From Escherichia coli (GTDB taxonomy: Bacteria > Pseudomonadota > Gammaproteobacteria > Enterobacterales > Enterobacteriaceae), in the NCBI RefSeq assembly GCF_013122565.1, contig NZ_CP053258.1: a stretch of 64,000 nucleotides of DNA. One strand, 5' to 3'. The stretch's first letter is position 1. Every line of letters begins with the position of its first letter. Positions 3,873 through 52,833 of the stretch are shown piece by piece. A model generated the notes under the pieces. The model had not been told where the DNA came from and did not search any database. It saw nothing but the letters and a program-made list of their open reading frames with translations. The position numbers were made by a program, and so were the translations under genes.

Positions 3873-4577
3873 TTAACGGCGGTTGCCGAAGATCCGCAGC
3901 AACATCAGGAACAGGTTGATGAAGTCCAGATACAAGGTTAACGCGCCAAGAATGGAATATTTGCGCAGGTTCGACGTGTCGCGGGTATCAATCTGCTCAC
4001 CCATATTTTTCAATTTCTGAGTGTCATACGCCGTCAATCCGACAAAGACAATCACGCCGATGTAGGTAACTGCCCACATCAATGCTTCGCTTTTCAGCCA
4101 GAAGTTGACCAGCGATGCCAGCACAATGCCGATTAACGCCATAAACAGCATATTGCCAAAGCCGCTTAGATCGCGCTTCGTGGTGTAACCATACAGGCTC
4201 ATTGCGCCGAACATCCCGGCAGTAACGACGAAAGTACTGGCGATAGAAGCAGCGGTATAGACAATGAAAATACTGGAAAGCGTAAGACCCGTCAGCGCCG
4301 AATAAAGCATAAAGAGCATCGTCGTTACACCTGCGCTCAGCTTTTGAATCATCGCTGATAACACAATAACCAATGCTAATTGCGCGATGATCAGACCGAT
4401 TAAAAAGACACGGTTAGTGAACAACAGCTCCATCACGGCCGCGGAATTAGCCGCATACCAGGCAACAAATGCGGTCAGCAACAAGCCAACGGTCATCCAG
4501 CCATAGACTTGCGCCATATAAGTTTGCAAGCCAGCCCGGGGTTGTACAATTGAATCAGAACGTGGGAATCTGTCCAT
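3873..4577 (-). CDS. ybhL: Inner membrane protein YbhL (BI-1 family), 234 aa from MDRFPRS
   Basis: ORF 3873..4658 with internal start; recognised sequence and position next to moaE. Confidence 0.85.
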   Translation of the reverse strand: MDRFPRSDSIVQPRAGLQTYMAQVYGWMTVGLLLTAFVAWYAANSAAVMELLFTNRVFLIGLIIAQLALVIVLSAMIQKLSAGVTTMLFMLYSALTGLTLSSIFIVYTAASIASTFVVTAGMFGAMSLYGYTTKRDLSGFGNMLFMALIGIVLASLVNFWLKSEALMWAVTYIGVIVFVGLTAYDTQKLKNMGEQIDTRDTSNLRKYSILGALTLYLDFINLFLMLLRIFGNRR

Positions 4578-4676
4578 GACGATCTCCTGAAGATATAAGG
4601 AATATCTTAAGGATACTGCAAAATGATGAGGCTGTGCATCGACGCAGCGTAAACGCATGTACTGAGCGGTGAAATT

Positions 4677-4703
4677 GCCGGATGCAGCGGTGCCTTATCC
4701 GGC
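4677..4703. repeat. REP-like palindromic element (gccggatg...ccttatccggc)
   Basis: Typical E. coli REP consensus in the ybhL-moaE spacer. Confidence 0.5.
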
Positions 4704-4713
4704 TAACAAAAAA

Positions 4714-5166
4714 CTACCAGCGTTTTGCTGCCTGCTGATCGCTCTCCCGAGCTTCGACCCAGCGGTCGCCTTCAGGCGTGGCTTCGCGCTTCCAAAACGG
4801 TGCGCGGGTTTTGAGATAATCCATAATAAACTGCCCGGCTTCAAACGCACTGCTGCGATGCGCACTGGTGACACCGACAAAAACGATTTCATCGCCCGGC
4901 CATAATTCCCCGATGCGGTGAATCACCGTGACGCGCCCCAGCGGCCAGCGGTTACGCGCTTCATAGACAATTTCTGCCAGTGCTTTTTCAGTCATCCCCG
5001 GATAGTGTTCGAGGGTTAATGCTTTGACGCTGTCGCCCAGGTTATGGTTGCGCACCTTACCGGTAAAGGTGACTACCGCACCGTCTTCGTCACACTCAGC
5101 CAGCCACGGGTACTCTTCACCTACACTGAACGGCTGCGGGCCGACAACAATTTTGGTTTCTGCCAT
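4714..5166 (-). CDS. moaE: Molybdopterin synthase catalytic subunit MoaE
   Basis: 150-aa ORF, recognised sequence, operon position. Confidence 0.93.
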   Translation of the reverse strand: MAETKIVVGPQPFSVGEEYPWLAECDEDGAVVTFTGKVRNHNLGDSVKALTLEHYPGMTEKALAEIVYEARNRWPLGRVTVIHRIGELWPGDEIVFVGVTSAHRSSAFEAGQFIMDYLKTRAPFWKREATPEGDRWVEARESDQQAAKRW

Positions 5167-5167
5167 C

Positions 5168-5413
5168 TTAACCTCCGGTTACCGGCGGGAAGAAAGCTAC
5201 TTCGTCGCCGTCAGTCAGCGAATGGTCAAAACTCACCAGCGTCTGGTTGACGGCAGCCAGCAATTTGCCATCTTCCAGCGCCAGCGCCCAGCGTTCGCTC
5301 TGCGCAGCCAGATGCTGGCGTAACGCTTCAACGGTTGGGAAATCCGCAGCCACTTCGGTTGCATCTGTTCCCACCAACTCGCGCACCTGGGCGAAAAAAA
5401 GAACTTTAATCAT
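5168..5413 (-). CDS. moaD: Molybdopterin synthase sulfur-carrier subunit MoaD (81 aa, C-terminal GG)
   Basis: ORF 5168..5476 with internal start [13 protein letters not shown]; ends ...PPVTGG. Confidence 0.92.
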
Positions 5414-5891
5414 CCGCTTCCACCTTAAAGTCACCCGACTTTCCGCCGCTCTTCGCCAGCAAACGTACCGGACCAATCACCATATCTTTTTGCACCGCTT
5501 TACACATGTCATAAATGGTCAGCGCCGCCACGGAGGCCGCAGTTAACGCTTCCATTTCGACACCGGTTTTCCCGGTCAGGCGGCATAAGGTTTCTATACG
5601 TACCCGATTGTGCTCCGGCTCAGCCTGTAAATTGACTTCAACTTTGCTGAGCATCAGCGGGTGACACAGCGGGATCAGATCCCACGTGCGTTTTGCCGCC
5701 TGAATACCGGCAATACGCGCAGTGGCAAATACGTCGCCTTTGTGGTGGCGACCATCAATAATCATCGCCAGCGTCTCGCTGCGCATGGTGACAAAGGCTT
5801 CGGCGCGCGCTTCACGCACGGTTTCTGCTTTGGCGGAGACATCCACCATGTGCGCTTCGCCAGCGGCGTTGATATGGGTCAGTTGCGACAT
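5406..5891 (-). CDS. moaC: Cyclic pyranopterin monophosphate synthase MoaC
   Basis: 161-aa ORF, recognised. Confidence 0.93.
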
Positions 5892-5893
5892 AC

Positions 5894-6406
5894 TTATTTC
5901 TTCAAATGTGGATGGAAATTACACGGACGCGTACGGGCATCCAGCTGCGGCGCGATGATATTTTCCCATGCGGTACGGCACGCTTTGGTCGAACCCGGCA
6001 TGGCAAAAATCAGCGTTTTGTTAGCGACGCCCGCTACCGCACGAGATTGTAACGTGGAAGTGCCAATCTCTTCGAACGACAACATCCGGAACACTTCACC
6101 AAAACCTTCCACTTCACGGTCGAACAACGGCAGCAGCGCTTCAGGAGCCTGATCACCTTCCGTCAGGCCAGTACCACCCGTAATCAATACCACTTGTACA
6201 TCGTCGCTGGCGATCCACGCAGATACCTGAGCGCGAATAGCGTAGCGGTTTTCTTTCACAATGGCTTTATCGACAACGTGATGGCCCGCTTCTTGCGCCG
6301 AATCGCGCAAATAGTGACCGGAGGTATCGTCTTCTTCACCGCGCCGATTAGAAACCGTAAGAATAGCAATACGGGTCGGGATAAATTCAGTGCTTACCTG
6401 ACTCAT
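5894..6406 (-). CDS. moaB: Molybdenum cofactor biosynthesis protein MoaB
   Basis: 170-aa ORF, recognised. Confidence 0.93.
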
Positions 6407-6427
6407 CTGATCTCTCCTTTTGACGTT

Positions 6428-7417
6428 TTAGCCGCCAATGTACGATAAGTTTTGTGTAATACCGGTGTTGTTTTGATGCAGGAAATGGGTCTGTTTCTTC
6501 TCCCGCAGCGCCGCTGAAATACGCGCTTCCAGCGCCTGTTGCTGGGTATCGTCTTCCAGCAGATCGCGCAGGTTAACGCCGCCCTCACCAAACAGGCAGA
6601 GATGGAGTTTACCAATGGAGGAAACGCGCAGGCGGTTGCAAGTGGCGCAGAAGTCTTTTTCATACGGCATGATAAGGCCAATCTCTCCAGCGTAATCCGG
6701 ATGACAAAAGACTTGCGCGGGACCGTCGCTGCGTTGACGTAATTGGTGGATCCAGCCGCGACGCAGTAGCTCGTCACGCAGAACCTGACCAGAGATGTGA
6801 TGCTTACGGAAGAGCTCGCTGCCCTCGCCCGTTTCCATCAGTTCGATGAAACGCAGCTGGATGGGACGATGCTGGATCCAGTCCAGAAAGGTGTCGAGCT
6901 GGTGATGGTTGACATCGCGCATCAGCACGGTATTGACTTTGACCTTCTCAAAACCGGCCTCAAATGCAGCATCGATCCCTGCCATGACCTGGTTGAATTT
7001 ATCCTGCCCGGTAATGGCATGAAACTGGCGAGCGTCGAGACTATCAACACTGACGTTAATGCCAGTAAGTCCCGCATCGCGCCAGTTCGCCACGTCGCGT
7101 TCCAGACGGTAACCATTGGTGGTGACCGCAATCTGACAGATAGCGTTGTTTTCCCGCACAGCGGCGATGATATCGGTAAAGTCGCGGCGTAAAGACGGCT
7201 CACCGCCTGTCAGGCGCACTTTTTCGGTGCCCAGACTGGCGAAGGCGCGCGTAACCCGGCGAATTTCATCGACGGTAAGGAAGCCTTTATTGGTGACGCC
7301 GCTCGGTTTGTAGCCTTCCGGCAGGCAGTAGGTGCAACGAAAGTTACACACATCGGTAATCGACAGGCGCAAGTAGTAAAACTTACGCGCAAATGCATCA
7401 GTCAGTTGTGAAGCCAT
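6428..7417 (-). CDS. moaA: GTP 3',8-cyclase MoaA (radical SAM), 329 aa
   Basis: ORF 6428..7498 with start at MASQLTDAF; CxxxCxxC motif (CNFRCTYC). Confidence 0.93.
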
Positions 7418-7419
7418 GT

Positions 7420-7570
7420 ACACCTTTCCAGATACGGGAGGCGAAGTCATTTCTTCCTTCGCCCTGGTGGCAATCTTTACGAGCATTGTCACGGCCAAAG
7501 CACCGTATCAGTTGACCCAGGTGCAGAGGCTAGAGTGTTTAGTAGTTAAGCCGATACTAGCGTGTAAACG
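7420..7570 (-). ncRNA. moaA 5' leader; expected position of the molybdenum cofactor (Moco) riboswitch
   Basis: Established knowledge that the E. coli moaABCDE leader carries the Moco RNA motif; leader present here but structure not folded by me; boundaries approximate. Confidence 0.5.
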
Positions 7571-7753
7571 AGATTTTTACCATCCACACTTTCGCTATGT
7601 AATCATGTATATAGCGTCATGATCGTGCTATTTCGCTACAGAATAAGGGAAAATGGCGGTTTTACTTTGATATACATCATCAGGGAGGCATAGCGTACAT
7701 CGTCCTTTAGAGGTAGAAGAAAATAGTTTGTATCCTCAATATTGGCAGGTTAA

Positions 7754-8722
<969 letters not shown>

Positions 8723-8778
8723 TGGGAAGCCGAAAGAAAATTCCTGCTTCCCATTGAAGACAAAGTACACGTTGTTCA

Positions 8779-8877
8779 TGCCGGATGCGGCGTGAACGCC
8801 TTATCCGGCCTACAAACCGCGCAAATTCAATATATTGCGGAGAAAATGTAGGCCTGATAAGCGTAGCGCATCCGGCT
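8779..8877. repeat. REP/BIME-like palindromic repeats between convergent ybhK and uvrB
   Basis: ccggatgcggcgtgaacgccttatccggcctac ... gcctgataagcgtagcgcatccggc. Confidence 0.6.
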
Positions 8878-8913
8878 GTTTTCCGTTTGTCATCAGTCTT
8901 CTTCGCTATCCTG

Positions 8914-10935
8914 TTACGATGCGGCAATAAACAACTCACGCAACTGATGCAACTGGTCACGAATTTGCGCCGCTTCTTCGAACTCCAGATTCTGCGCGTG
9001 TTGCATCATCAACCCTTCCAGTTCATGGATCTTCTGCTGCAACGCTTTAGGCGACATATCCATCGGCACATTATCCGGCTCAACAATCGGTCGCGATTTT
9101 ACTCTGCCCTTCGCTTTGGTTTTGGCGATGTTCTGCCCCAGCGCCAGGATATCGACCACTTTCTTGTTCAAGCCTTGCGGCGTAATGCCGTGTTCCTCGT
9201 TGTACTTCTGCTGTTTCTCGCGGCGACGTTCGGTTTCGCCAATCGCTTTCGCCATTGATGGGGTGATCTTATCGCCGTAGAGAATCGCTTTACCGTTAAC
9301 GTTACGTGCCGCACGACCAATGGTCTGGATCAACGAACGTTCGGAACGCAGGAAGCCTTCTTTGTCAGCGTCGAGGATCGCCACCAGCGACACTTCCGGC
9401 ATATCCAGACCTTCGCGCAGTAAGTTGATCCCTACCAGCACGTCGAACTCACCCAGACGCAAGTCGCGGATGATTTCCATACGCTCGACGGTGTCGATAT
9501 CCGAGTGAAGATAACGCACGCGCTCGCCATGTTCTTCAAGATATTCCGTGAGATCTTCCGCCATTCGCTTGGTCAGTGTGGTGACCAGCACGCGTTCGTT
9601 AATTGCCGCTCGCTGACGAATCTCCGAAAGAAGATCATCAACCTGTGTCGCCACCGGCCGCACTTCAATTATCGGGTCAAGCAATCCGGTTGGACGCACC
9701 ACCTGATCCACCACATCGCCGCCGGATTTTTCCAGCTCATAATTACCCGGCGTCGCCGAAACATAGATGGTTTGCGGCGCTAATGCTTCGAACTCTTCAA
9801 ATTTCAGCGGACGGTTATCCAGCGCCGATGGCAGGCGGAAGCCGTACTCCACCAGCGTCTCTTTACGCGCCCGGTCACCGCGATACATGCCGCCAATTTG
9901 CGGAATGGTGACGTGAGATTCATCGACGACCAGCAGCCCATCGGCAGGCAGGTAATCAAACAGCGTCGGCGGTGGCTCACCCGGTCCACGACCGGAGAGG
10001 AAGCGCGAGTAGTTTTCAATCCCCGAACAGTAGCCCAGCTCGTTCATCATCTCCAGATCAAACTGGGTACGCTGGGTCAGCCGCTGCTCTTCCAGCAGTT
10101 TGTTGTTTTCCAACAGCACCTTGCGTCTGGCGGCCAGTTCTTCTTTGATCTCCTCCATCGCCTGTACGATGCGCTCACGTGGCGTGACGTAGTGCGTTTT
10201 CGGGTAGATGGTAAAACGTGGAATCGTGGAAATAATCTGCCCGGTTAGCGGGTCAAATAACGACAATCGTTCCACTTCCTCGTCAAACAGTTCCACGCGA
10301 AGTGCAATGTCATCCGATTCTGCCGGGAAGATATCTATCACCTCGCCACGAACGCGGAAAGTACCACGCTGGAATGCCTGATCATTACGAGCGTATTGCA
10401 ACTCCGCCAGTCGGCGCAGGATCGCACGTTGATCGATAATCATGCCGACCGTGAGGTGGAGCATCATCTTGAGATATAAATCAGGGTCGCCCAGACCATA
10501 AATCGCGGAAACAGAGGCCACTACAACCACATCACGCCGCTCCAGCATCGCTTTGGTGGCGGATAAACGCATCTGCTCAATATGTTCGTTAACCGAGGCA
10601 TCTTTCTCAATGAAGGTGTCGGAACTCGGTACATAGGCTTCCGGCTGATAGTAGTCGTAGTAGGAAACGAAATACTCCACCGCGTTTTCCGGGAAGAACT
10701 CTTTCATTTCGCCATAGAGCTGGGCCGCCAGCGTTTTGTTGGGCGCCAGCACCATCGTTGGACGCTGTAGGTCAGCAATGACATTGGCGATGGTGAAGGT
10801 TTTCCCGGAGCCCGTCACGCCAAGTAACGTCTGGTGCGCCAGGCCATCTTCCAGCCCCTCTTCGAGACGTCGAATCGCCTCTGGCTGATCGCCAGAAGGT
10901 TTAAAAGCGGAATTCAGTTTGAACGGTTTACTCAT
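8914..10935 (-). CDS. uvrB: Excinuclease ABC subunit B UvrB
   Basis: 673-aa ORF; [21 protein letters not shown]..., helicase motifs (GVTGSGKT). Confidence 0.96.
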
Positions 10936-11011
10936 GAGTCGCTACCTGAAGGAGTTGGGCGGGCAGGTATGTAATTTTACTCGTCGTACTTAATTATGCC
11001 AACAAATTATA

Positions 11012-27620: not shown

Positions 27621-28310
27621 TTAGCGCCCCGCCCGTTCACGGCTGATTCTGGCCAGCCATTCTGAAATCAACAGGGAGATCATCGCCAGCGCAATAGAAA
27701 TAATGCACAGTCTCGCCGCGCCACTTTCCCCGCCGGGGGTCTGGATCAGGGTATACATGGCAGAGGGAATGGTTCGCGTTTCGCCAGGAATGTTCGACAC
27801 AAAGGTGATGGTTGCACCAAACTCACCGAGAGAACGAGCAAAAGCCAGTACCGTACCAACAATAATTCCCGGTAAGGTCAGCGGTAACGTGATAGTAAAG
27901 AAAACGCGCCAGCGCCCGGCCCCCAGTGTTCTTGCGGCCTGTTCCAGTTTGACATCAACCCCTTCCAGCGCCAGACGAATTGCCCGCACCATCAGCGGAA
28001 ACGACATGACGGCGGCAGCGAGAACCGCGCCGCGCCAGCTAAAGGCGAAGGTAATACCAAACCAGTCATACAGACGTTCACCGATAAATCCGCGCCGTCC
28101 CATCGAAACTAATAATAAGTAACCGACGACCACGGGCGGTAACACCAGCGGTAGATGCAGTACGCTGTCGAGCAGAGCTTTGCCCGGAAACGTGTAACGC
28201 ACCAGTAACCAGGCAAAAAAGATCCCAAACGGCAGGCTAAACAGCACAGCCAGGGAAGAAACTTTCAGGCTTAATAAAACTGCCTGCCATTCTGGATCGG
28301 TCAGTATCAT
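27621..28310 (-). CDS. modB: Molybdate ABC transporter permease ModB
   Basis: 229-aa ORF. Confidence 0.94.
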
Positions 28311-29083
28311 TACTTGGTTGTAAATCCGTAATGTTTAAAGATTTCCGCAGCCTGCGGCCCTTTCAAATAATCATAAAATGCTTTCACTGTCGCATTGTTA
28401 TGCCCTTCCACAACAGCAACCGGATATTCCACTTTTTTATGCGAATCTTCCGGGAAGGTGGCAACCACTTTTACCCCTTTGCTGGCAACTGCGTCAGAAC
28501 CATAAACAATGCCCAGCGGCGCTTCATTGCGTTCGACCAACGCCAGCGCGCCACGAACATCTTCCGCCGGAGCCAGTTTCGGGGAGAGCGTATCCCATGC
28601 GCCCAGTTTTTGCAGTGCTTCTTTCGCATAAATGCCAGCGGGGACATGTTCCGGATCGCCAACCGCCAGACGACCGCCATTCAGCAGCGAAGTCCAGTTA
28701 GTTTTGCTGTCGATGGTGAAATCTTTCTGCTCGCTGGCTTTCGGTGCTACAACGACCAGGCTATTGCCGAGCAGTGTCTGACGCGTAGCTGTATCGATCG
28801 CTTTTTTATCAACCGCATAATCCATCCATTTCTGATCGGCAGAAATAAACAGATCCGCAGGGGCACCCGCTTCAATCTGACGGGCGAGAGTAGATGACGA
28901 AGCGAAAGAAGAAACCACATCCACGCCTTTCTCTTTTTTATACTGGGTAGCAATGTCCTGCATTGCGTTAGTCAGTGATGCGGCGGCGAACACCGTGATT
29001 TTCCCTTCATCTGCCAGTGCATTGCCAGCAACAGCGAAAGAGAGTGCCGCCCCGGCAAACAAGTTCAACCATTTACGAGCCAT
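28310..29083 (-). CDS. modA: Molybdate-binding periplasmic protein ModA
   Basis: 257-aa ORF with signal peptide. Confidence 0.94.
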   Translation of the reverse strand: MARKWLNLFAGAALSFAVAGNALADEGKITVFAAASLTNAMQDIATQYKKEKGVDVVSSFASSSTLARQIEAGAPADLFISADQKWMDYAVDKKAIDTATRQTLLGNSLVVVAPKASEQKDFTIDSKTNWTSLLNGGRLAVGDPEHVPAGIYAKEALQKLGAWDTLSPKLAPAEDVRGALALVERNEAPLGIVYGSDAVASKGVKVVATFPEDSHKKVEYPVAVVEGHNNATVKAFYDYLKGPQAAEIFKHYGFTTK

Positions 29084-29092
29084 TGGTAACCC

Positions 29093-29129
29093 CTTAATGT
29101 AACGTTATGTAGGCGACAATATAACGACT
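29093..29129. promoter_or_regulatory. ModE operator at the modABC promoter
   Basis: cttaatgtaacgttatgtaggcgacaatataacgactaa matches the remembered modA operator (CGTTATATTGTCGCCTACATAACGTTACATTAAG on the other strand). Confidence 0.75.
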
Positions 29130-29527: not shown

Positions 29528-30316
29528 ATGCAGGCCGAAATCCTTCTCACCCTTAAGCTCCAACAAAAATTATTCGCCGACCCGCGCCGCATTTCGCTAC
29601 TAAAACACATTGCGCTTTCCGGTTCCATTAGCCAGGGAGCGAAAGATGCCGGTATCAGCTATAAAAGCGCCTGGGATGCCATTAACGAAATGAATCAGTT
29701 AAGCGAGCATACGCTGGTTGAGCGCGCAACAGGCGGTAAAGGTGGCGGCGGCGCGATGCTGACTCGCTATGGTCAACGCCTGATTCAGCTTTACGACCTG
29801 CTCGCCCAGATCCAGCAAAAAGCCTTTGATGTGTTAAGCGACGATGACGCCCTGCCGCTGAACAGCCTGCTGGCCGCGATCTCACGTTTTTCACTACAAA
29901 CCAGCGCCCGTAACCAGTGGTTCGGTACCATCACCGCCCGCGATCATGATGACGTTCAACAGCATGTTGATGTCTTACTGGCTGACGGAAAAACACGCCT
30001 GAAAGTCGCAATTACCGCACAAAGCGGCGCGCGTCTGGGGCTGGATGAAGGCAAAGAAGTGTTGATATTGCTAAAAGCGCCGTGGGTAGGTATTACTCAG
30101 GACGAGACGGTCGCGCAAAACGCCGACAACCAATTACCGGGTATTATTAGTCATATTGAGCGCGGCGCAGAGCAGTGCGAAGTATTAATGGCGCTACCCG
30201 ACGGGCAAACACTATGCGCCACTGTGCCGGTAAATGAAGCGACTACTCTTCAGCAAGGACAGAATGTCACGGCCTACTTTAATGCCGACAGCGTGATTAT
30301 CGCCACGCTGTGCTAA
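29528..30316 (+). CDS. modE: Molybdate-responsive transcriptional regulator ModE
   Basis: 262-aa ORF, recognised. Confidence 0.94.
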   Translation: MQAEILLTLKLQQKLFADPRRISLLKHIALSGSISQGAKDAGISYKSAWDAINEMNQLSEHTLVERATGGKGGGGAMLTRYGQRLIQLYDLLAQIQQKAFDVLSDDDALPLNSLLAAISRFSLQTSARNQWFGTITARDHDDVQQHVDVLLADGKTRLKVAITAQSGARLGLDEGKEVLILLKAPWVGITQDETVAQNADNQLPGIISHIERGAEQCEVLMALPDGQTLCATVPVNEATTLQQGQNVTAYFNADSVIIATLC

Positions 30317-42371: not shown

Positions 42372-42447
42372 TGGTGGGTCGTGCAGGATTCGAACCTGCG
42401 ACCAATTGATTAAAAGTCAACTGCTCTACCAACTGAGCTAACGACCC
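42372..42447 (-). tRNA. lysQ: tRNA-Lys (UUU)
   Basis: Exact match to remembered E. coli tRNA-Lys including CCA; name by position next to nadA. Confidence 0.95.
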
Positions 42448-42480
42448 CTTGCGGGATTATGCTGCTTTAATCATTCAGGA

Positions 42481-42556
42481 TGGTGGGTCGTGCAGGATTC
42501 GAACCTGCGACCAATTGATTAAAAGTCAACTGCTCTACCAACTGAGCTAACGACCC
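42481..42556 (-). tRNA. lysZ: tRNA-Lys (UUU)
   Basis: Identical 76-nt copy. Confidence 0.95.
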
Positions 42557-42604
42557 ATACGGGTGTTACCTGAAAGATTTCTACTCGGAACCAATCTTTA
42601 AAAT

Positions 42605-42702
42605 TGGTGGGTCGTGCAGGATGACTCGCTTCGCTCGCCCTACGGGCCGTTGCTGGCGCAACGTTATCCTTCACGCTTAACATCTGAGTTTGATGTTAAA
42701 AC
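42605..42702 (-). repeat. Spacer repeat copy 1 (ends, in transcript sense, with a 17-nt copy of the tRNA-Lys 3' end)
   Basis: tggtgggtcgtgcagga then gactcgcttcgctcgccctacgggccgttgctg...; three near-identical copies in this operon. Confidence 0.7.
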
Positions 42703-42778
42703 TGGTGGGTCGTGCAGGATTCGAACCTGCGACCAATTGATTAAAAGTCAACTGCTCTACCAACTGAGCTAACGACCC
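42703..42778 (-). tRNA. lysY: tRNA-Lys (UUU)
   Basis: Identical 76-nt copy. Confidence 0.95.
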
Positions 42779-42781
42779 GAG

Positions 42782-42857
42782 TGGTGGGTGATGACGGGAT
42801 CGAACCGCCGACCCCCTCCTTGTAAGGGAGGTGCTCTCCCAGCTGAGCTAATCACCC
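42782..42857 (-). tRNA. valZ: tRNA-Val (UAC)
   Basis: 76 nt, recognised tRNA-Val (GGGTGATTAGCTCAGCTGGGAGAGCACCTCCCTTACAAGGAGG...CCA on minus strand). Confidence 0.93.
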
Positions 42858-42908
42858 GATACTGCGCTGGATACTACAAACTACTTCCACCGAACCCACC
42901 GTAATTAG

Positions 42909-43006
42909 TGGTGGGTCGTGCAGGATGACTCGCTTCGCTCGCCCTACGGGCCGTTGCTGACGCAACGTTATCCTACACGCTTAACATCTGTCTTCGATGT
43001 TAAAAT
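42909..43006 (-). repeat. Spacer repeat copy 2
   Basis: Same element as 42605-42702 with a few substitutions. Confidence 0.7.
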
Positions 43007-43082
43007 TGGTGGGTCGTGCAGGATTCGAACCTGCGACCAATTGATTAAAAGTCAACTGCTCTACCAACTGAGCTAACGACCC
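43007..43082 (-). tRNA. lysW: tRNA-Lys (UUU)
   Basis: Identical 76-nt copy. Confidence 0.95.
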
Positions 43083-43084
43083 GG

Positions 43085-43160
43085 TGGTGGGTGATGACGG
43101 GATCGAACCGCCGACCCCCTCCTTGTAAGGGAGGTGCTCTCCCAGCTGAGCTAATCACCC
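43085..43160 (-). tRNA. valT: tRNA-Val (UAC)
   Basis: Identical to the other Val copy. Confidence 0.93.
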
Positions 43161-43195
43161 GATACTACGCTGGATACTACAACTAACTATGTTAG

Positions 43196-43295
43196 TGGTG
43201 GGTCGTGCAGGATGACTCGACTTCGTCTCGCCCTTCGGGCCGTTGCTGACGCAACGTTATCCTTCACGTTTTACTACCGCTTCCACCTTAGCGCT
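43196..43295 (-). repeat. Spacer repeat copy 3
   Basis: Same element, slightly diverged (gactcgacttcgtctcgcccttcgggccg). Confidence 0.7.
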
Positions 43296-43371
43296 TGGTG
43301 GGTCGTGCAGGATTCGAACCTGCGACCAATTGATTAAAAGTCAACTGCTCTACCAACTGAGCTAACGACCC
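43296..43371 (-). tRNA. lysT: tRNA-Lys (UUU)
   Basis: Identical 76-nt copy; first gene of the operon. Confidence 0.95.
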
Positions 43372-43535: not shown

Positions 43536-44327
43536 TTACATCGCGTTCAGACGTTTTTGCGCCTGTTTAGCGCCATCAGTACCAGGGTATTTACTGATAA
43601 CCTGCTGGTATACGGCTTTCGCTTTTGCGGTGTCACCTTTGTCCTGCATGATGACGCCGACTTTAAACATCGCATCTGCAGCCTTTGGTGACTTCGGATA
43701 GTTTTTCACTACCGAAGCAAAATAGTACGCCGCATCATCTTTTTTACCCTTGTTGTAGTTTAACTGACCCAGCCAATAATTGGCGTTTGGCAGGTAAGTT
43801 GAATCAGGGTAATTTTTGATGAAATTCTGAAATGCCACCATTGCGTCATCCTGGCGGGATTTATCCTGCACCAGCGCAATAGCTGCATTGTAATCCGTGT
43901 TTGCATCGCCGCTTTTCACCGGCGCGCCAGCATTCGCAGTACCAGCATCAGCTGTCGGCGTCGTTGATGCCGCCGCACCGCTTTGATCACCGCTGGTTGA
44001 TTGCGCCGCTGCACCACCGCTGCTGAGGCTGTCGATCTGCAACAGGATCTGCTTTTGCCGCTCCACGACCTGATTCAGTTGATACTGATTTTCCTGAATC
44101 TGACCACGCAGGGAATCAATATCGGATTGATTATCAGAGAGTTGTTGCTGGAGTTGGGTTAAAAGCTGGCTGTGAGCATTAGAAATACGCTCAAGTTGAG
44201 TGACGCGGTCTTCGACCGAGCCTGAGCCGACACTACTGATTGGTGCCTGAGCAAAAGCGGCCCAGGGGGCCGCTATACCAACCAGTAACGACAGACTCAA
44301 TAGTTGATGTCTGAAGTTACTGCTCAT
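43536..44327 (-). CDS. cpoB: Cell division coordinator CpoB (YbgF), TPR protein with signal peptide
   Basis: 263-aa ORF, recognised. Confidence 0.93.
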   Translation of the reverse strand: MSSNFRHQLLSLSLLVGIAAPWAAFAQAPISSVGSGSVEDRVTQLERISNAHSQLLTQLQQQLSDNQSDIDSLRGQIQENQYQLNQVVERQKQILLQIDSLSSGGAAAQSTSGDQSGAAASTTPTADAGTANAGAPVKSGDANTDYNAAIALVQDKSRQDDAMVAFQNFIKNYPDSTYLPNANYWLGQLNYNKGKKDDAAYYFASVVKNYPKSPKAADAMFKVGVIMQDKGDTAKAKAVYQQVISKYPGTDGAKQAQKRLNAM

Positions 44328-44336
44328 GCAATTCTC

Positions 44337-44882
<546 letters not shown>

Positions 44883-52819: not shown

Positions 52820-52833
52820 TTGATTTATATCAA
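52820..52833. promoter_or_regulatory. FNR-consensus palindrome in the cydAB upstream region
   Basis: ttgatttatatcaa = TTGAT-N4-ATCAA exactly, about 340 nt upstream of cydA; the cydAB promoter is known to be FNR/ArcA controlled. Confidence 0.7.

Follow-up and report, generated by a model that had tools for sequence, protein, structure and literature searches.

The leader of moaA in the 64,000-nt stretch of E. coli DNA analyzed here (the window) very probably contains the known Moco riboswitch of the moaABCDE operon, in a copy from an Escherichia lineage that has diverged by about 3% from sequenced E. coli. The riboswitch as such is already known: it was described in 2008, is contained in Rfam, and is routinely annotated by the NCBI pipeline. 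An earlier note, made from the letters of the window alone, had placed the molybdenum cofactor motif in the moaA leader and had proposed a search with the Rfam covariance model as a check. This search returned a strong match, to Rfam RF01055 (Molybdenum/Tungsten riboswitch aptamer, Moco RNA motif), with a score of 102 bits (gathering score, 36) and an E value of 3.3e-24 (cmscan), which far exceeds chance. The match runs from 7549 to 7405 on the minus strand, covers positions 1 to 135 of the 135 positions of the model, and is full length and not truncated. RF01055 was matched only once when the 64-kb window was searched against Rfam at the gathering thresholds.

Genomic context of the moaA leader

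The element overlaps moaA, the first gene of moaABCDE, and lies on the same (minus) strand. As the earlier note had it, moaA and ybhK are divergent; the spacer between them has a length of 396 nt (7418-7813). The genes and the element are as follows:

6428..7417, minus: moaA (GTP 3',8-cyclase), the gene directly controlled; ATG at 7417, matches TIGR02666
4714..6406, minus: moaB, moaC, moaD, and moaE, the remaining operon, from the open reading frames and the annotation of syntenic E. coli loci
7814..8722, plus: ybhK/yvcK, matches TIGR01826
7405..7549, minus: Moco riboswitch, aptamer and expression platform in one 145-nt element, from RF01055, a covariance model of our own, and the PGAP annotation at the homologous position

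The gene order is that of the E. coli region uvrB - ybhK(yvcK) / moaABCDE, in reverse orientation in the window. The moaA product scored 368 bits on the MoaA equivalog TIGR02666 (cutoff, 284), and the moaA start used by RefSeq is the same ATG as in the window. At its 3' end (7405), the RF01055 match takes in the Shine-Dalgarno sequence, the AUG at 7417..7415, and 12 nt of the moaA coding sequence. Thus, the localization of the motif in the moaA leader was correct, but the aptamer is not wholly upstream in untranslated RNA, since it overlaps the ribosome binding site (RBS) and the start codon. The interval 7420-7570 originally given for the leader leaves out the 3' end of the motif, whose true limits are 7405 and 7549 on the minus strand; positions 7550 to 7570 are core promoter DNA and not RNA.

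Anatomy of the riboswitch

The Rfam alignment was mapped onto the sequence of the window, and P1 to P5 were all aligned, with neither P3 nor the GAAA loop of P4 missing, so that the full motif, which had only been expected before, is present. The parts are as follows:

7539..7533 with 7424..7419, minus: P1, 5' strand A-ACAC-U-C (anti-Shine-Dalgarno) with 3' strand GGUGUA, from the Rfam alignment
7547..7544 with 7414..7411, minus: weak outer extension of P1, from the Rfam alignment
7494..7530, minus: P2 stem, from the Rfam alignment; 10 of 11 pairs covary in 94 sequences
7521..7516 and 7507..7503, minus: internal bulges of P2, CCUGGG and UACGG, at the tetraloop-receptor position
7467..7492, minus: P3, a hairpin of GUGACAAU ... 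AUUGCCAC in which one pair is an A·C mismatch
7439..7464, minus: P4 stem with a GAAA tetraloop (7453..7450) at its tip
7428..7438, minus: P5 mini-hairpin, CC CGUAUCU GG, within the conserved core CCUCCC...GGAAAGG
7426..7421, minus: Shine-Dalgarno sequence AAGGUG, overlapping the 3' strand of P1, GGUGUA at 7424..7419 (the part spans 7419..7426)
7415..7417, minus: AUG start codon of moaA, from translation, inside the Rfam match

The overlap of the P1 3' strand with the Shine-Dalgarno sequence sits 3 to 5 nt before the AUG. Since the RBS has its core in the 3' strand of P1 (GGUGU), the arrangement fits a translational OFF switch, and E. coli moaA has indeed been described with its RBS within P1 and predicted to be under the control of such a switch (Regulski 2008, Mol Microbiol 68:918). 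No intrinsic terminator was found in the moaA leader, which also fits translational control.

P3 has five consensus pairs, or eight with the extension found in E. coli, and its A·C mismatch is replaced by A-U in Citrobacter and by G-C in Enterobacter. The presence of P3 marks the Moco type, whereas copies that lack P3 are associated with tungsten-cofactor metabolism (Regulski 2008). Judged by the presence of P3 in its sequence, the RNA of the window is of the Moco-type subclass rather than the Tuco type. The GAAA loop is present, but the putative receptor for it, the bulge at the receptor position, reads CCUGGG/UACGG instead of the common YCUAAR/YAUGR. This bulge variant is common to Escherichia (E. 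albertii included) and Citrobacter, whereas YCUAAR/YAUGR is found in most relatives.

Conservation and covariation of the fold

Relatives of the leader were gathered with a plain pattern of the conserved core, which yielded 120 loci on contigs chosen at one genome per species. The window and 19 gammaproteobacterial leaders (20 in total) were aligned with MAFFT as a seed alignment that was fitted to no structure; a pattern match in Methylotuvimicrobium was left out since it aligned poorly. In this structure-naive alignment, 78.8% of the pair cells of the consensus fold were paired, compared to 33 to 43% when the 3' partners were slid, and covariation was 0.373, compared to 0.10 or less in the slid controls. 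The columns of P5 and the core were invariant in the gammaproteobacterial alignment, a value to be read with the fact that the search pattern itself fixed 18 of these bases.

A covariance model built independently from these 20 leaders only found one site in the window, at 7408-7552, with 100.9 bits. When applied to the other 99 loci, it gave another 92 matches, only one of which was not full length; these loci belong to Chloroflexi, Bacillota, Actinomycetota, Deltaproteobacteria, and other phyla. In the resulting alignment of 94 sequences, 89.5% of the pair cells were paired (slid controls, 35 to 48%), covariation was 0.521 (slid controls, 0.084 or less), and none of 500 shuffles reached the observed values; 838 cells had changes on both sides. 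Being fitted to the model, this alignment leans towards the structure, but the structure-naive alignment agrees with it. Among the individual stems, P1 was paired to 89.9%, with changes on both sides at four of six pairs, and P4 was paired to 92.4%, with 8 of 11 pairs covarying. The columns of P3 were without letters in about 60 of the 94 sequences.

Single-sequence folding of the leader

Thermodynamic folding of the 145-nt RNA as a single sequence did not return the consensus fold. The minimum free energy (MFE) was -42 kcal/mol, with a z score of -1.94, whereas the Rfam structure had -25 kcal/mol, or -32 kcal/mol when extended. The MFE fold keeps P3 and P4, and P1, P2, and P5 are replaced by long-range pairs: GCACCU at 7524..7519, the 5' strand of P2, pairs with the Shine-Dalgarno region, and GAUACGG pairs with CCGUAUC. 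In the predicted ligand-free ensemble, the Shine-Dalgarno bases 7425..7420 are paired to 7519..7524 with a probability of about 0.9. When the alternative helices were examined for covariation, none was detected: in the gammaproteobacterial alignment, 56 of 500 shuffles reached the observed values, and in the alignment of 94 sequences, 409 of 500 did so. The MFE helices were therefore rejected as conserved structure, as they did not covary in either of the two alignments. The MFE fold may still be a ligand-free (apo) state specific to Escherichia. The second anti-Shine-Dalgarno strand, GCACCU, had no covariation support outside enterics.

Transcription signals upstream of the riboswitch

Transcription has been reported from a ModE-dependent start, which gives a 131-nt leader, and from a second, FNR-dependent start that lies another 87 nt upstream (Anderson 2000, as quoted in Regulski 2008). 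From the published leader length, we infer that transcription starts at about 7548 (ModE dependent) and at about 7635 (FNR dependent). The 5' end of the RF01055 match, 7549, nearly coincides with the published ModE-dependent start. The candidate signals are as follows:

7554..7559, minus: -10-like hexamer TAGTAT of a putative ModE-dependent promoter, from the sequence and the published leader length
7593..7616, minus: palindromic ModE-type operator, CGCTATATACATGATTACATAGCG, from a pattern match
7667..7680, strand unassigned: FNR-like box ATGATgtatATCAA, matching the consensus at 9 of 10 bases and located upstream of the distal promoter
29103-29126: modA operator for ModE, CGTTATATTGTCGCCTACATAACG, 20 nt upstream of modA and next to modE

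A scan of 7380-7830 for consensus promoters called none. The ModE operator pattern, which was partly derived from the moaA site, matched exactly twice in the 64 kb, with 0 matches expected. The box at 7667-7680 fits in position to the published FNR-dependent start at -87 but is not significant alone, since the search of the window with the FNR consensus gave five matches, with 2.6 expected. A perfect FNR consensus, TTGATTTATATCAA, was seen elsewhere, at 52820-52833. In the neighborhood of modA, modB, and modE (28310-29083 and 29528-30316), modB follows modA and modE is divergent, and the gene of the molybdate sensor ModE and both of its operators (moaA and modA) share the same 64-kb window.

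Proposed regulation and alternative explanations

In the regulation that we propose, a leader of about 131 nt would be transcribed from about 7548 and would fold into the five-stem Moco aptamer. Ample Moco, or a closely related pterin containing Mo, would stabilize the folded aptamer, the stabilized P1 would hold the Shine-Dalgarno sequence, and translation of moaA would be repressed; the outcome would be feedback control of cofactor synthesis. ModE, responding to molybdate, and FNR, responding to anaerobiosis, would set transcription upstream of this switch, and two layers may be added to it, activation of translation by CsrA bound in the aptamer and a contribution of Rho-dependent termination to repression. 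In E. coli K-12, repression requires moa, mogA, modC, and moeA, and mobA is not needed; disruption of P3 abolishes it, changes that restore P3 pairing bring it back, and tungstate has no effect (Regulski 2008). CsrA has been found to have two sites inside the aptamer and to activate translation with the mRNA level unchanged, and Rho-dependent termination in the 5' untranslated region (5' UTR) or the open reading frame of moaA contributes to repression. For the allele in the window, Moco-dependent repression is predicted by analogy, carried over from the nearly identical K-12 sequence.

Binding of Moco to the RNA has not been demonstrated directly in the literature, the cofactor being too labile (PMC10265488; Regulski 2008), and a 2024 paper states that the effector of the Moco riboswitch still awaits identification (PMC10845959). 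Direct binding is thus unproven and deduced for the whole class, not just for the copy in the window.

In a rival explanation, the conserved leader would be a platform for a protein, CsrA or a Moco-binding factor, with Moco acting through that protein. The lack of a demonstration of direct binding, the two CsrA sites in the aptamer, and GGA motifs at 7457..7455 and 7429..7427 would fit this idea. However, the five-stem fold and its junction covary or are conserved across Chloroflexi, Bacillota, Actinomycetota, Deltaproteobacteria, and other phyla, and the motif adjoins Moco genes with differing expression platforms (Regulski 2008), which together is the pattern of a metabolite aptamer and not that of a lineage-specific protein site. 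Moreover, two decades of genetics have not revealed a protein factor (Regulski 2008), and we consider the protein platform very unlikely. Slightly less probable still is that the MFE fold, and not the Rfam fold, is adopted in the cell and acts as a constitutive damper of translation. Its lower free energy (-42 compared to -25 to -32 kcal/mol) and the probability of about 0.9 with which it pairs the Shine-Dalgarno sequence argue for it, as do experiments on the RNA: in-line probing data for the ligand-free K-12 RNA conflicted with a large part of P2 (Regulski 2008), and in vitro dimethyl sulfate mapping puts the Moco riboswitch among the regions with two or more conformations. Against this stand the z score of only -1.94 and the covariation, since shuffles matched the alternative helices in 56 and 409 of 500 cases but the consensus fold in none of 500. 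A further possibility is that the Escherichia leader is not a simple two-state switch. In such a model, the RBS would be masked by the 5' strand of P1, ACAC-C at 7538..7533, in the ligand-bound fold and by the 5' strand of P2, GCACCU at 7524..7519, in the apo fold; CsrA or another factor would be needed to open the RNA for derepression, Moco would compete with CsrA instead of closing an RBS that is otherwise open, and the U·G pair at 7544 would slightly shift the balance. We regard this elaboration as quite unlikely.

It is also conceivable, though unlikely, that regulation acts mainly through Rho-dependent premature termination, in the leader or the early open reading frame, and not through ribosome access, given the contribution of Rho mentioned above. 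But Moco affects translational fusions that are driven by a constitutive promoter, the RBS is in P1 (Regulski 2008), and CsrA changes translation with the mRNA level staying the same. Rho action would most simply follow from blocked translation and would then be an added layer to, rather than an alternative for, the translational switch. That the interval is coding can practically be dismissed. Two frames are open in the list of open reading frames, an antisense one at 7416..7622 (plus strand, 68 amino acids) and an N-terminal extension of MoaA from a TTG at 7498, but related enterobacterial leaders have indels within this stretch, of 11 nt in Enterobacter and of 1 nt in C. youngae, neither of them a multiple of three, TIGR02666 aligns from residue 5 of the protein started at the ATG, and this is the ATG that RefSeq uses. 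Both the antisense frame and the upstream TTG extension were rejected on the indel pattern and the family alignment. A translational OFF switch built on the Moco aptamer is the reading that we retain.

The window carries a natural allele from a diverged lineage

A homologous 145-nt element was found in 5,424 of 5,426 complete E. coli genomes, and the four PGAP-annotated E. coli loci examined carry a RefSeq feature "molybdenum cofactor riboswitch" in exactly the homologous place. Among some 5,400 matches to the moaA leader, two were on records of E. coli plasmids and not on chromosomes. The copy in the window has one position of its own in the leader:

7544, minus: lineage-specific C-to-U change, the sole leader difference from K-12 and three other E. 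coli loci in a base-by-base comparison

U at 7544 was found in no complete E. coli genome, and no copy there matches all 145 nt exactly. The same U is, however, present in assembly GCA_018578885.1 (contig DAEGCK010000001.1), in which the whole spacer is identical and 3.9 kb are 99.3% identical, and since it is shared by this second assembly, the allele is natural. The window is about 96.8 to 97.2% identical to the nearest of the 5,426 complete E. coli genomes, for 1-24000 as well as for 4400-11000. With a best identity of about 97%, the lineage of the window is unrepresented among these genomes.

Between the window and four E. coli genomes, the 396-nt spacer has only one to four differences (0.25 to 1.0%), whereas moaA to moaE, ybhK, and uvrB differ by 2 to 6% and the spacer between ybhK and uvrB by 5 to 12.6% in the same comparison; from K-12, moaA differs by 2.9%. 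Conservation of the control region between moaA and ybhK thus exceeds that of the flanking genes by a factor of 3 to 10, which is what a spacer dense in regulatory signals should show. The contribution of the window is one natural allele of a lineage with about 3% divergence, which matters little beyond correct annotation.

Other observations in the window

The spacer between ybhK and uvrB contains an inverted pair of REP elements (BIME-like) at 8780-8877, and an Rfam match to the small RNA ES036 (CssrF) at 8814-8855 is the stretch between the two REPs. A 6.6-kb query that included the REP spacer gave a median of 33 matches in each E. coli genome, possibly because of the REP pair, and about 150 nt around the pair (8751-8900) had no match in two of the comparison loci (L125 and L126). 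Further away, the CpoB/ybgF intercistronic RNA thermometer RF02782 was matched at full length at 44298-44436 on the minus strand, with 142 bits (gathering score, 51). Seven tRNA genes, five for tRNA-Lys(UUU) and two for tRNA-Val(UAC), are clustered at 42372-43371 on the minus strand. RtT has been described from the tyrT operon; in the window, three matches to RtT (RF00391), with 54 to 61 bits, span tRNA spacers and overlap tRNA-Lys genes, and could be due to repeats that the spacers share or to portions of the model that resemble tRNA. The segments 1-1150 and 1520-2250 are without a counterpart in strain PT62, the E. coli genome that matches best, and look like variable or accessory DNA beside the ybhL/ybhM region.

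Comparison with known systems

The closest known system is the moaA Moco riboswitch of E. coli K-12, at the same locus (uvrB-ybhK / moaABCDE) and with a 131-nt leader, P1 to P5 including P3, the GAAA loop, and the RBS in P1. The sequence of the aptamer core of K-12 is identical to that of the window. Within the 5' UTR, the two differ only by the change of C to U at 7544, which turns the outermost pair of P1, with G7414, from C-G to U·G. Over the Rfam interval there are two differences, both at the 5' edge, the second being a change of A to U at the unpaired position 7549.

Variants that lack P3, which have been proposed to be sensors of the tungsten cofactor (Tuco/Wco), share the core of P1, P2, P4, and P5 and the junction sequence with the RNA of the window. 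Unlike these variants, the window RNA has P3, and tungstate has no effect on the K-12 copy (Regulski 2008). The thiM thiamine pyrophosphate riboswitch of E. coli is likewise a translational OFF switch, in which the Shine-Dalgarno sequence is sequestered by ligand-stabilized folding and an intrinsic terminator is absent. Its fold and its ligand are unrelated, however, and it uses a separate platform of anti-Shine-Dalgarno and anti-anti-Shine-Dalgarno sequences after the aptamer, whereas in the moaA leader the RBS lies inside P1 itself.
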